64,000 nucleotides of DNA from Deltaproteobacteria bacterium (GCA_020850995.1 JADZDP010000177.1:4712-68711); one strand, 5' to 3'; shown: positions 1-6,294, numbered from the stretch's first letter. The notes: generated by a model not told the origin, from the letters alone. Made by a program: numbers and translations.

Positions 1-561
1 GACCTGATCGTGCTTGGGCGCGCGATCGAGCAGGCGCTCCTCGCGGCACCAAGCGAATGGACGGCGAATCCGTCGGCAAACGAGCGGCTCCTCGCGGTCA
101 TCAACGGCGCTGTGGAGCGAGGCCGATCGGCGAAGGTCGCCGCCATCAGCAGCGGTGATCTGCTGCTGGCGATCGCGGAGCACGACCCGCAAGCGCAAGC
201 GCTGTTGCAGACCACGGGGTACTCGCATTCGATCTTGCTCTCGCTGCTCGCACACGGCAGCGAGGCCCCGCCGGCGCCCGACGCCAAGCTCCCCGCTGGG
301 GACACGCTCGAGGTCGTGGTCCACAACGACGACTACACGCCGCAGGACCTGGTGGTCGCGATCTTCGTCGACGAGCTCAACCTCGACCCGGCGCGCGCGC
401 ACGCGCTCATGCTCGAGGTCCACACCACGGGGCAGGCCACGGTCCTCAGCCTCCCGCGGGAGCAGGCGATCGAGCGCGCGCGGCGGGCCAGCCAGCGCGC
501 GCGCGCGGCGGGGGCCCCTTTGCGGATCACGCTGCGTGCAGCGGCGGAGGCACGGTCCTGA
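1..561 (+). CDS. clpS: ClpS adaptor-domain protein with N-terminal Clp-N-like repeat (5' end outside window)
   Basis: Frame 1 is open from nt 1 (the table ORF 10..561 starts at an internal GTG). The C-terminal half has the ClpS core (VVVHNDDYTPQDLVVAIFVDEL....AHALMLEVHTTGQATV). The preceding ~90 aa resemble repeat 2 of the ClpA/ClpB N-domain (ISSGDLLLAIAEHDPQAQALLQTTGYSHSILLSLLAHG). Confidence 0.6.
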   Translation, partial: DLIVLGRAIEQALLAAPSEWTANPSANERLLAVINGAVERGRSAKVAAISSGDLLLAIAEHDPQAQALLQTTGYSHSILLSLLAHGSEAPPAPDAKLPAGDTLEVVVHNDDYTPQDLVVAIFVDELNLDPARAHALMLEVHTTGQATVLSLPREQAIERARRASQRARAAGAPLRITLRAAAEARS

Positions 562-602
562 CGCGGGAGCCCTCGACGGCGAGCTCCCGGCGATAGAACG
601 AG

Positions 603-840
603 CTACGCCCGCGCGGCGCGCTGCCAGGTGCGTCCGCCGGCAGCACCAGATCGTGCTGGAGCGCCGCCTCGAGCACAGCCCGCGTGCCCGGACACGTCAG
701 GATCTCAAGCGCCTCACGCACCTCCGCCGGCACCTCGTCGAGGCCGCGGGCGCTCTTCTCGGGCAAGAGCCCGCGCGTGATCCCGGCGCGGTGCGCGCCT
801 CCACTCACACTCGCGCCGTGACAGCAATCACTCGCGGCCT
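603..840 (-). pseudogene. Diverged duplicate of the lon 3' end (fragment, no Lon body upstream)
   Basis: Minus-strand ORF 527..850 reads [63 protein letters not shown]. The last 63 aa of intact Lon read [63 protein letters not shown]. Nucleotide similarity to nt 3934-4150 is visible over about 200 bp (for example, ...cgcctcacgcacctccgccggcacctcgtcgagg... is shared). Confidence 0.55.
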
Positions 841-868
841 CGCTGCTCAAGGCGCCACGCTGTCACAA

Positions 869-2830: not shown

Positions 2831-2865
2831 CTGTCTCGTCCTGTTCGACTCGCTCGCCTGTCATC

Positions 2866-3816
2866 GTGGCAACCAAAACACTCTTTCACATGGACGTTGG
2901 CTCGGCTGAGTACCAGTCGTGTCGAGGCCAAGCGCACGTTCGCGCAGCCATCGAGGAGGCGTTCGCGGCCTATGCACCAATCGCCGACGTGGACTACGTC
3001 GACGCGTTTCGGACGCGGACAACGCAGCGGCTCTGGGAGCTCTTCACCTTTCACGTCCTGCGACGAGACGGGAAAGATCCAGCGTCACCGCGGCGGCACA
3101 CCGTTGACGACCGCGTCGTCGAGGGCGGCCCGGACTTCCTGCTCCAGGGCTCGCCCCGCGTGTGGGTGGAGTGCGTCGCTTCGGGTCCGGGTGAGGGCGA
3201 GAACCGCGTCGCGCCGATGCCCGATGGTTTCGGCACCTACGCGGTCGTGGACCCGAAGGCGGACCTGCGATTGGTGACCTCGGTGGATGAGAAGCGAAAG
3301 AAGTTCGACGGGTACCGCTCGCGGGGCATCGTGCAGGACGGCGACGTCAACGTCGTCGCCCTGCATGCGCGCGACGTGCACCCGTTCGTCGACGCGTCGG
3401 CAGAGCTCGGTGTCCCGGTGTACGTACGCATGCTCTACGGGCTCGGCGCCTACTACGAGAGGGTCGTCCCGGTTGGCGACGGCAGCGTCATCTTCCCGGG
3501 CGCCGAGTGGGAACGCCGCATTGTGGTCGAGAAGCGGCGTGACGAGCACGGTGTCATCGAGGTGGGCACTGCGCTGTTCTTCGAAGAGCGCTACGCGCAG
3601 GTCTCGGCGCTGATCGGTGGAATGCCGGGCGCGCGAGCGTTCCTCGACGACGACGAGCTTCGCGGCAGGGGTCTCGTCATCGTGCATAACCCGCGTGCCA
3701 AGGCGCCGCTGCCGCGCGGCTTCTTCGGCTTCGGCGCGGAGTACTGGGTCGAAGGCTGGGACGGCACGCGCGGTACACTCGCTGTCCGTGAGGCAACGAG
3801 GGACGCGCCGCGCTGA
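2866..3816 (+). CDS. Hypothetical protein (no recognisable domain)
   Basis: 316-aa ORF with normal amino acid composition and GC3-rich codon usage. The exact start is uncertain (M at 2866 or the internal M at 2888). Confidence 0.5.
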   Translation: MATKTLFHMDVGSAEYQSCRGQAHVRAAIEEAFAAYAPIADVDYVDAFRTRTTQRLWELFTFHVLRRDGKDPASPRRHTVDDRVVEGGPDFLLQGSPRVWVECVASGPGEGENRVAPMPDGFGTYAVVDPKADLRLVTSVDEKRKKFDGYRSRGIVQDGDVNVVALHARDVHPFVDASAELGVPVYVRMLYGLGAYYERVVPVGDGSVIFPGAEWERRIVVEKRRDEHGVIEVGTALFFEERYAQVSALIGGMPGARAFLDDDELRGRGLVIVHNPRAKAPLPRGFFGFGAEYWVEGWDGTRGTLAVREATRDAPR

Positions 3817-3933
3817 GGGATCACTAGGAATCGAACGTCGTGATCGCGAGCCGCGCCGCTGCCACGACAGCCACAGGGTTCGAGCCGTCCGACCGAAAAG
3901 CAGCGCCGGCACCGTGACGCCGCCAGCGCCCCC

Positions 3934-6294
3934 CTACGCCCGCGCCCCGCGCGGCGCCCCACCCTGCGCGTCCGTCGGCGGCACCACGTCATGCTCGAGC
4001 GCCGCCTCGAGCACCTGGCGCATGTCCGAGCACAGCACGATCTCGAGCGCCTCACGCACCTCCGCCGGCACCTCGTCGAGGTCGCGGGCGTTCTTCTCGG
4101 GCAAGAGCACGCGCGTGACGCCGGCGCGGTGCGCGGCCAAGAGCTTGCTCTTGATGCCGCCCACGGGGAGCACGCGCCCGCGCAGCGTGGCCTCGCCGGT
4201 CATGGCCGTGTCGGGCCGCACGCGGCGCCCGGTGAGCAGCGACACCAGCGCGGTGAACATGGTGACGCCCGCGCTCGGCCCATCCTTGGGCACCGCGCCC
4301 GCCGGGATGTGGATGTGCACGTCGCTCTCGGCGAGGAACTTCGGATCCACGCCGAGCGCGTCGGCGTTGCTGCGCACGTAGGTGAGCGCCGCGTTGGCCG
4401 ACTCCTTCATCACGTCGCCGAGCTGGCCCGTGATCTGGATGCTGCCCTTGCCCGGCATGCGGCTGGTCTCGATGAACAAGATGTCGCCACCCACGGGCGT
4501 CCACGCCAGGCCAATGGCCACGCCCGGCAACATGGTGCGCTCGGATCGCTCATCGAAGAACTTGGGCTTGCCGAGCATGTCCTTGAGCTGCGCCGGCGTC
4601 ACCGCCAGGTGCGCCAGCTTCTTGTCGACGGCGCGCGCCACCTGCAAGGCGACGTTCCTGCACAACCGCGTGATCTCGCGCTGCAGCTGGCGCACGCCCG
4701 CCTCGCGCGTGTAGCTGGCGATGATGTCCTTGAGCGCCTCGTCGCTGACCTCGAGCTGCGCGGCGTCGAGCCCGTGCTCGCGCAGCTTCTTTGGGATCAG
4801 GTGCTTCTTGGCGATGCCGAGCTTCTCGTCTTGCGTGTAGCCCTGGATCTCGATGAGCTCGAGCCGATCGCGCAGCGCGGGCGAGAGCGCGCTGATGTCG
4901 TTGGCCGTGCAAATGAACAGCACCTCGCTCAAGTCGAAGGGCAGCTCCAGGTAGTGGTCGGTGAAGGTGTGGTTCTGCTCGGGGTCGAGCACCTCGAGCA
5001 GCGCAGCCTCGGGGTCGCCGGCCCAGCCCTTGCCGAGCTTGTCGATCTCGTCGAGCAAGAACACCGGGTTCTTGGCCCTCGACTTCTTGAGCGCCGACAC
5101 GATGCGACCAGGGATGGCGCCCACGTAGGTGCGCCGGTGACCGCGCACCTCGGCCTCGTCGCGCACGCCGCCAAAGGAGATGCGCTGGAAGGGCCGGCCG
5201 AGCGCGTCGGCCACGCTCTGGCCGAGGCTGGTCTTGCCTACGCCCGGCGGGCCTACCAGGCACAGGATGGTGGCCTTGGCAGTGCCCGTCATCTGCAAGA
5301 CCGCCAGGTGCTCGAGGATGCGCTTCTTCGGCTCGTCGAGGCCGGTGTGGTCGTCGTCGAGCTTCTGCTGCACGTCGTCGATGCTGCCCTGCTCCTCTAC
5401 CTTCACGCGCCAGGGCAGATCGAGGATCCACTCGAGGTAGTTCCGAATCACGCCCTGCTCGGGGCCGCTCGCCTGTCCTTGCAGGCGCCCCATCTCGCGC
5501 TCGGCAACCTTCCTCACCTCGTCGGGCAGGTCGGCCTTCTCCAGGCGCTCCTTGAGCTTGTCGACGTCGTTCTCGGGGCCGCCGCTCGGGTTCAGCTCCT
5601 TTTGGATGGCCTTGAGCTGTTCGCGCAAGATGGCCTCGCGCTGGCTCTTGTGGAATTCCTTGCGCACCTCGTTGTCGATGCGCTCGCGCACCTCGCCTTG
5701 CGCCTTCAGCTCTGCCACCAGGCGCATGACCTCGCGCAGCCGCTCGACGACGTCGAGCGTGAGCAGCACGGTCACCTCTTTGTGCACCGGCAGGCCGAGC
5801 GTGGCGGCGGTGCGGTCGGCCAGCGCGCTCGGGTCGTCCTCGTCGCCCAAGGCCTCGATGGTGCGCGCCAGCGGGCCCTGCGCCTTGTCTTCCAGCTCCT
5901 TGAGCTCGGCCTTGAGCGCCAGCACCAGGTCGTGCAGCTCCGCCTCGTCGAAGACGGCGTCCTTCAGCTCCTCGACCTGCACCGTCAGGAAGGGCGTGCG
6001 CTTGACGACGTCCAGCACCTTGACGCGGGCCACGCCCTCGAGGGTCACCTGGTAGCCGCGCGGCAGGCGCTGCACGCGGCGCACGCGCGCCACCACGGCG
6101 ACGGGCTGCAGGTCGGCGAGCGCGGGCTCCACCACGGCGGCGTCTTTCTGCACGCCGACGACGACCTCGGCGCCGGCCTCGATGGAGGTGACCAGCGCCA
6201 CCGAGGTCGCGCGGCCCACCGGGATGGTGGCGGTAGCGGCGGGCAAGAGCACGCCGTCGCGCAGCGGCAAGAAGGGCAGGGTGCGGGTCTTCAT
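3934..6294 (-). CDS. lon: ATP-dependent protease Lon
   Basis: Lon N-domain [18 protein letters not shown]; Walker [12 protein letters not shown]; catalytic Ser in [11 protein letters not shown]. The start was trimmed to the ATG at 6294 (table ORF extends to 6375). Confidence 0.9.

Follow-up and report, generated by a model that had tools for sequence, protein, structure and literature searches.

Why should the last ~200 bp of a gene for the Lon protease occur a second time, 3.1 kb away from the intact gene and separated from it by two complete genes? We addressed this question in a stretch of 64,000 nucleotides from a Deltaproteobacteria bacterium (GCA_020850995.1, JADZDP010000177.1:4712-68711), which belongs to a metagenome-assembled genome; the whole stretch, with a G+C content of 71%, is referred to below as the window. 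The intact lon gene lies on the minus strand at 3934-6294. We designate its functional 3' end R1 (3934-4137) and the distal copy of its tail R2 (601-799). R2 is a neutrally decaying lon pseudogene, and we consider it, with a probability of roughly 0.6, to be the scar of a homology-anchored insertion (Campbell-type or one-sided) at the lon 3' end that was followed by decay.

The duplicated lon terminus

The intact gene was identified by TIGR00763 (E=6.9e-267) and by the Lon_C, AAA and LON_substr_bdg domains. It is numbered here by 786 codons from the Met that is used by the relatives (start MKTRTLPF, at 6294); the mechanical open reading frame (ORF) extends to 6375, starts 27 codons upstream and encodes 813 aa. 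R1 comprises codons ~720-786 and the TAG stop, and R2, also on the minus strand, is a decayed and frameshifted copy of the last ~67 codons plus the stop. The ungapped core of the pair is a direct repeat of 190 nt (608-797 against 3946-4135) with 161 of 190 positions identical (84.7%, blastn E=3e-57). No other copy of R2 was found in the 64-kb window, where the next-best match had E=0.002 over 34 nt. A first-pass annotation of the window had described a diverged lon 3' duplicate of about 200 bp with about 85% identity, and the alignment bears this out, the similarity being no short GC-rich coincidence. The extent that it gave for the fragment (603-840) had to be corrected: only 601-799 is Lon-like, and the 107-codon ORF at 527-850 runs into non-Lon sequence on both sides. 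It had also placed the fragment upstream of lon, which is right in window coordinates but not in gene orientation, since lon is on the minus strand and R2, in direct orientation relative to it, lies 3.1 kb downstream of its stop codon.

At the protein level, Lon residues 748-810 of the 813-aa ORF (721-783 of the 786-aa protein) matched the minus strand of R2 with 47 identities in 63 residues (75%, BLASTP E=6e-28). The Pfam model Lon_C was also found in R2 (E=2e-6, 28 bits with a cut-off of 21.1), through profile positions 157-204 of 205 only. When whole Lon was used as a tblastn query, only residues 747-810 matched beside R2, at 608-799, in agreement with the earlier statement that no Lon body adjoins the fragment. 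The 5' limit of the repeat falls at lon codon ~720 (window position 4137 in lon and 799 in the copy), right behind the GGIKSK motif, and R2 begins with ...AHRAG. The catalytic dyad of Lon was placed on the assumption that it corresponds to S679 and K722 of E. coli Lon. Since R2 begins after GGIKSK and far after DGPSAG, it is without the catalytic Ser and Lys. R2 therefore matches the Lon proteases in sequence but has neither their full domain set (substrate-binding, AAA+, and protease with dyad) nor an open frame; it is a lon pseudogene remnant, fit for annotation as such and not as a small ORF.

The 3' limit coincides with the lon stop codon. In lon and in all relatives the gene ends with ...CCGCGCGGG GCGCGGG CGTAG, which contains a tandem 7-mer (GCGCGGG-GCGCGGG), and R2 ends with ...CCGCGCGGG CGTAG. 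One GCGCGGG unit is thus missing in R2, which shifts the frame, and beyond it the homology, as judged by eye, reaches the TAG of lon. Loss of one 7-mer by slippage would explain the gap and the shifted frame together, and would extend the homology exactly to the stop. Past the stop codon, no similarity was detected between the two copies.

The pattern of change in R2 was compared with that of functional lon genes from relatives, whose Lon proteins have 786-790 aa. Differences between R1 and R2 fell on codon positions 1, 2 and 3 in the numbers 9, 10 and 11, and 17 changed codons were non-synonymous versus 8 synonymous. The dN/dS ratio between R1 and R2 was 0.77, and that between lon and its counterpart in the relative L081 was ~0.18 (dN 0.048, dS 0.266). 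When 29 differences were polarised with four relatives as outgroups (Lon 94, 89, 89 and 87% identical), 21 were found to be derived in R2, none in R1, and 8 were ambiguous. Residues that are invariant in the relatives are replaced in R2, for example CSDM by CPGT.

R2 is nearest to the lon gene of its own genome, with 84.7% identity to R1 against 72-80% to the lon tails of four relatives (79.5, 72.1, 75.3 and 73.2%). Four states are common to R1 and R2 and are found in none of the relatives. Because R2 is closest to its own lon and shares derived states with it, and because neither the window nor the related loci showed a second lon, an origin from a foreign lon paralogue is unlikely. Of the two explanations offered earlier for the divergence, an old event or capture from a paralogue, the former is favoured, and the latter is disfavoured by the distances, by the shared-derived sites and by the neutral pattern, in which 21 of 21 polarisable differences are private to R2.

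Divergence is not uniform along R2. The half next to the putative lipoprotein gene of the interval (708-799) differs from lon at 6 of 92 positions (6.5%) and the other half (608-707) at 24 of 100 (24%), with p=0.011 in a change-point permutation test. The less diverged half contains a perfect block of 36 nt, and a stretch of 14-15 identical nt lies at the 5' limit of the repeat. A gene-conversion tract from lon into R2 is the simplest account of this unevenness, and constraint is an alternative. A 32-mer from the block common to both copies, used to search for strain variants or an empty site, had no exact match in the metagenome contigs. Depending on the half, change in R2 amounts to 0.16-0.29 substitutions per site, which, as a rough estimate, places the event at about the time of the separation from the closest relative sampled (total dS 0.27), or earlier.

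The position after lon in relatives and a parallel case

The window is collinear from 3933 to 19191 with a block of L083 that runs from dnaA, rpmH and rnpA to a kinase gene and lon, and the alignment ends at the lon stop codon. The alignments with L081, L082, L083 and L084 end at window positions 3929, 3931, 3933 and 3928, respectively. Thus 15 kb of synteny is kept on the dnaA side, and gene content after the stop codon differs in seven of the seven relatives. In L081 the stop is followed by 295 nt and a gene for a 199-aa protein. In L082 there are 3,510 nt before the same gene, with a candidate defence ATPase (PDC-S01) and a DbpA helicase; the ATPase gene (4650-5762, AAA_14/DUF4143, PADLOC PDC-S01 E=1.7e-93) comes directly after the stop of a lon whose product is 89% identical to that of the window, and the 3.5-kb stretch that contains it is absent from L081. 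L083 has unrelated genes at this position. An OPT transporter gene follows directly in L088 (0 ORFs between), after 4 ORFs in L089 and after 1 ORF in the P0006 contig.

Genes have thus been gained or lost repeatedly right after lon in this lineage, probably because lon, being highly conserved, can serve as an anchor for recombination. Since the flanks of all relatives differ, there is no conserved flank after the stop by which the native copy could be told. No second lon and no lon-tail copy was found in these relatives, and none of those examined combines the arrangement of the window with an intact second lon, a finding that had been named beforehand as one that would speak against a duplicated terminus.

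Copies of the lon tail were also searched for in 162 loci in which the 3' end of lon is complete, with the last 240 nt of each lon as the query against its own locus. One further case was found, the locus L166 on a JGI metagenome contig (Ga0100377_1001985). It has 61% G+C, and its Lon is only ~45% identical to that of the window. The last ~72 codons of its lon, with the stop, recur 2.6 kb downstream in direct orientation and in frame, with 91.9% identity. The order in L166:4049-11334 is lon (4049-6454), the 2.6-kb interval, the lon-tail copy (9041-9262), hupB, tRNA-Val and a frameshifted P4-type integrase gene. No recombinase gene lies in the interval, which opens with a truncated gene for a group-1 glycosyltransferase and continues with genes for a PIN-domain protein and a transferase of the WecG family. 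In Proteobacteria lon is usually followed by hupB. The distal copy abuts hupB, the usual neighbour of lon, and is therefore the displaced original terminus. The two copies differ in the way alleles do, staying in frame with a two-codon indel and with changes concentrated in the variable tail, which fits recombination with DNA from another strain. The repeat of L166 starts ~15 nt (about five codons) further 3' in Lon than that of the window, a difference that is not significant with two cases and a 240-nt screen. The P4-type integrase was considered as evidence for targeting of lon and dropped, as it sits beside tRNA-Val and beyond hupB.

With Lon as the query, a scan of a genome collection gave one useful relative among the matches listed (L001, 75%), and a metagenome scan, from which L166 came, gave mostly relatives at 45-60%. 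In the loci L008, L024, L033, L042, L045, L051, L065, L069, L077, L125, L127, L136, L147, L154 and L166, the tblastn match of Lon spanned 3.3-3.6 kb rather than 2.3 kb. The extra length in L166 came from an upstream ORF of 420 codons, possibly clpX, that had been joined to the match.

Two features of the conserved side were observed in addition. The region ~14300-19200 is collinear with dnaA, rpmH, rnpA and a DarP-family gene of L083, so that only ~10 kb would separate lon from the region of the probable replication origin. The collinearity between dnaA and lon is interrupted at 11122-14297, where ~3.2 kb of extra sequence in the window stands against 150 nt in L083.

The interval between the copies and its neighbours

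The interval between R2 and R1 (800-3933, 3,134 bp) holds two complete genes on the strand opposite lon, with a G+C content of 0.63-0.70 against a window mean of 0.71. Scans of both genes with Pfam, NCBIfam, PHROGs and PADLOC gave no recombinase, phage or conjugation gene, and there is no room for a third gene. The contents given by the first-pass annotation, a cysteine-repeat lipoprotein and a hypothetical gene, were recovered. The first gene (869-2830, plus strand) encodes a putative lipoprotein in which a Gly/Glu-rich linker is combined with three cysteine-rich repeats of the myxobacterial type (TIGR02232 three times, E=3e-27, 94 bits with a cut-off of 20.8; DUF4215, E=4e-17). Its signal peptide, ending in ...LALSC, was read from the sequence, and no homologue was found in any fetched locus. 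At 1019-1170, inside this gene, a near-perfect array of GAAGGT/GAAGGC hexamers encodes the (Gly-Glu)n linker behind the signal peptide. Arrays of this kind readily undergo slippage and so vary in length.

The second gene (2866-3816, plus strand) encodes a 316-aa protein without a Pfam or NCBIfam match. Of 5.8 billion proteins, a single one proved to be closely homologous (67% identity), and it is encoded in an unrelated context that includes an ATP-grasp gene but not lon. As the lipoprotein has no homologue and the homologue of the second protein has another neighbour, the two genes are not a conserved pair. An exhaustive HMMER search extended the family, for which neither Pfam nor NCBIfam has a model, to 968 representative proteins of ~300 aa with roughly 30-37% identity. 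In an alignment of 42 members the residues W57, E58, P89, D90, E102, G109, R135, K143, P184 and G194 were invariant, and the PD-(D/E)xK fold with its conserved acidic residues was found in the 316-aa protein. The PADLOC model PD-T7-5 matched 42 of the 42 aligned members (best E=1.3e-21) and PD-T7-1 matched 38; the window protein itself matched each of them weakly, at E=1e-4, and matched phrog_8571 at E=4.7e-13. No homologue was found on phages by tblastn, which gave two weak matches on plasmids. PD-T7-1 and PD-T7-5 are single-gene anti-phage proteins that are listed as PD(D/E)XK nucleases (PMC10952713), and the screen behind the PD-T7 proteins is described in bioRxiv 10.1101/2022.05.12.491691. 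From its sequence, the 316-aa protein is a candidate defence nuclease and a distant member of the PD-T7-5/PD-T7-1 superfamily.

R2 sits in a gap of 307 nt (562-868) between the lipoprotein gene and a clpS-like gene. The latter (1-561, plus strand) is the 3' part of a gene for a 249-aa Clp_N and ClpS fusion (P0123); it is convergent with R2 and adjoins what we take to be the displaced lon terminus. One distant homologue of the fusion (~50%) was found among the 5.8 billion proteins, in another context with an AK-HSD neighbour, and the fusion gene too looks like a rare accessory gene. Each copy of the lon terminus is followed by a hairpin. Directly after the TAG of lon, and as part of the interval, there is a terminator-like hairpin with a U-tract (3895-3932, minus strand, -26.9 kcal/mol, z=-2.2). 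The hairpin between the end of R2 and the convergent clpS-like stop (562-600) has -25.6 kcal/mol on the minus strand (z=-3.0, with 0 of 200 shuffles as stable) and may be the former terminator of lon and clpS. Elsewhere in the window, two tRNA-Ser genes on opposite strands (32896-32985 and 33103-33192, with the anticodons GGA and CGA) are arranged back to back with 117 nt between them.

Origin of the repeat and comparison with known systems

From these observations we infer a route of recombination and its direction, that is, which of the two copies was resident. The incoming DNA would have carried a copy of the last ~200 bp of lon, followed by the lipoprotein and nuclease genes, and would have recombined with the resident lon within that 200-bp stretch. 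It may have been circular and have entered through one crossover of the Campbell type, or linear, with a homologous exchange in lon on one side and an illegitimate junction at codon ~720 (799/800) on the other. The result would be an intact lon (body plus R1), 3.1 kb of new DNA, and the displaced tail R2, still attached to the former downstream hairpin and clpS-like gene. With one homologous exchange and one illegitimate junction the whole structure could arise in a single event, and because an intact lon is kept, an event inside this important gene would be survived. The repeat would end at the stop codon because the genomes of the group differ from that base onward. Free of selection, R2 would then have acquired ~15% substitutions overall and the 7-nt slippage deletion, and a later refresh of its lipoprotein-proximal half (708-799) from lon by gene conversion is possible. 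Recombination at the lon 3' end with a duplicated terminus, as had been proposed in the first-pass annotation, is supported by the architecture, by the synteny break at the stop and by L166.

Several observations weigh against such an insertion. The match up to the TAG needs a 7-nt gap, and a standard local alignment ends 12 nt earlier, at 608/3946. An empty site, with lon directly followed by the hairpin and the clpS-like gene, was found in none of the relatives, nor was an orthologue of the clpS-like gene, so that the original flank is without a counterpart there. Gene conversion or constraint has to be invoked in addition to account for the uneven divergence of R2. The diverged 3' half of R2 is nearly equidistant from L081 (75%) and from R1 (76%), and as the possibly converted half holds three of the four shared-derived sites, the argument that R2 comes from the same lineage rests partly on one site. 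Finally, R1 is 92% identical to the lon of L081 and the rest of lon 87%, so that neither copy is marked as the incoming one.

Integration by an integrase would give a similar structure if the attachment site mimicked the lon 3' end, as with e14 and 21 at icd, and if the integrase and most of the element were lost later. The architecture of icd, e14 and icdC is indeed the same (PMC13626634). The repeat stops at the stop codon, as expected if an element must restore the frame, and the 36-nt identical block or the 14-nt stretch at the 5' limit could serve as a core. The cargo, moreover, includes a candidate defence nuclease, and e14 comparably carries defence genes (lit and mcrA). However, both genes of the interval are accounted for without a recombinase, phage or conjugation gene, and the interval is just 3.1 kb, made up of two complete genes with short flanks. 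The interval of L166 opens with a glycosyltransferase gene that is truncated, and the only nearby integrase adjoins tRNA-Val beyond hupB; the two repeats start ~15 nt apart in Lon and so appear to share no common core, and none of the other 160 lon loci has a lon-tail repeat. We regard integrase-mediated integration as unlikely. A tandem second copy of lon that lost its body, through replacement or deletion, as the lipoprotein and nuclease genes came in, would account for the states in R2 that are specific to the lon of this genome, at a site that is prone to replacement after the stop; myxobacteria often keep more than one lon. Yet this takes two events when a single one is enough, a second lon in tandem or close by was seen in none of the relatives, and no Lon sequence upstream of codon ~720 is found beside R2. 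The distal copy of L166, with the same short length and next to hupB, fits a displaced terminus better than two truncations, and a former tandem lon appears quite unlikely. A related scheme, in which a tandem duplication (lon-R-cassette-R-cassette) was followed by loss of the second cassette, was rejected as it takes two events and a deletion that ends exactly at the stop codon.

Another explanation concerns the retention of R2 rather than its origin. R2 may have been kept because it regulates the lipoprotein gene or contains its promoter, or because, transcribed on the plus strand by read-through from clpS or within the 5' leader of the lipoprotein gene, it gives an RNA antisense to the 3' end of the lon mRNA. 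Upstream of the lipoprotein gene there is a single intergenic space (562-868), most of which R2 occupies, the part nearest the start of that gene (708-799) is 93.5% identical to lon and includes the 36-nt block while the other half is 76% identical (p=0.011), and a fragment with 15-24% neutral change has still not been deleted. Gene conversion accounts for the uneven divergence equally well, though, no promoter-like site and no relevant Rfam family was found in 1-4300, and the broken frame and the replaced conserved Lon residues make a protein product unlikely; retention for function is thus improbable. We give very little credence to the wider idea that the lon stop region is a recurrent, integrase-free entry point for accessory or anti-phage genes in several phyla, with the retained tail pairing antisense with the 3' end of the lon mRNA and so tying expression of the newcomers to the protease. 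The least probable origin is an assembly artefact, namely a chimeric join of two strains via lon, or else a templated 'filler' copy from break repair. Although the source is a metagenome-assembled genome, R2 is frameshifted and has changes at invariant residues, unlike a working lon tail of another strain; the sequence to either side of it is unique, and two stretches of 190 nt at 85% identity would not be confused by an assembler. Random filler would explain neither why the repeat ends with the stop codon nor why L166 has a parallel arrangement.

Homology-anchored insertion, the reading that we favour, has counterparts among known systems. In E. coli K-12 the 3' end of icd is repeated as the icdC fragment across the e14 prophage (PMC13626634, citing Hill, Gray and Brody 1989), and recombination between the direct repeats would remove the insert and leave a chimeric gene (PMC13626634). 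The window resembles icd/icdC and e14 in having an intact housekeeping gene and a direct pseudogene copy of its 3' end beyond the insert. e14, in contrast, is a 15-kb prophage with its own integrase that excises after SOS induction, whereas the insert described here has 3.1 kb and no recombinase or phage genes, and its distal copy is much more decayed, being 85% identical and frameshifted, with a dN/dS of 0.77. A site-specific mechanism for the window insert is not supported. In genomic islands at tRNA and tmRNA genes, too, the acquired DNA is bounded on its far side by a directly repeated 3' portion of a conserved gene, and the site is reused in related genomes, but these islands have a tyrosine integrase, usually beside the target, and a defined core, none of which is evident here.

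Hotspots of defence and accessory genes beside core genes have been described in E. coli, Pseudomonas and Acinetobacter. Like them, the position after lon is fixed beside a conserved gene and holds different accessory genes in each genome; unlike them, it is seen in seven related genomes, and only two inserts contain putative anti-phage genes (the nuclease gene of the window and PDC-S01 of L082). In the genome described here, the variable region reaches its far boundary outside the window. The window case, L166 and the turnover in every sampled relative point to the lon 3' end as an integrase-free anchor for gene gain. Through it, two accessory genes would have been gained without damage to an important protease gene, ~10 kb from dnaA, in a myxobacterial-type genome. 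Campbell-type or homology-facilitated illegitimate recombination has reportedly been obtained in transformation experiments with Acinetobacter (de Vries and Wackernagel, 2002) and Streptococcus pneumoniae (Prudhomme et al., 2002). In those cases, as proposed here, one stretch of homology anchors foreign DNA, the anchor is duplicated or there is one illegitimate junction, and the anchor gene stays functional; the donors in the laboratory are known, while no donor sequence for the window was found in the collections, and its assignment is made from architecture alone. To our knowledge, natural footprints of one-sided homologous insertion have seldom been pointed out. The principle itself is established, and the scar at lon is of a known kind that requires no new mechanism.

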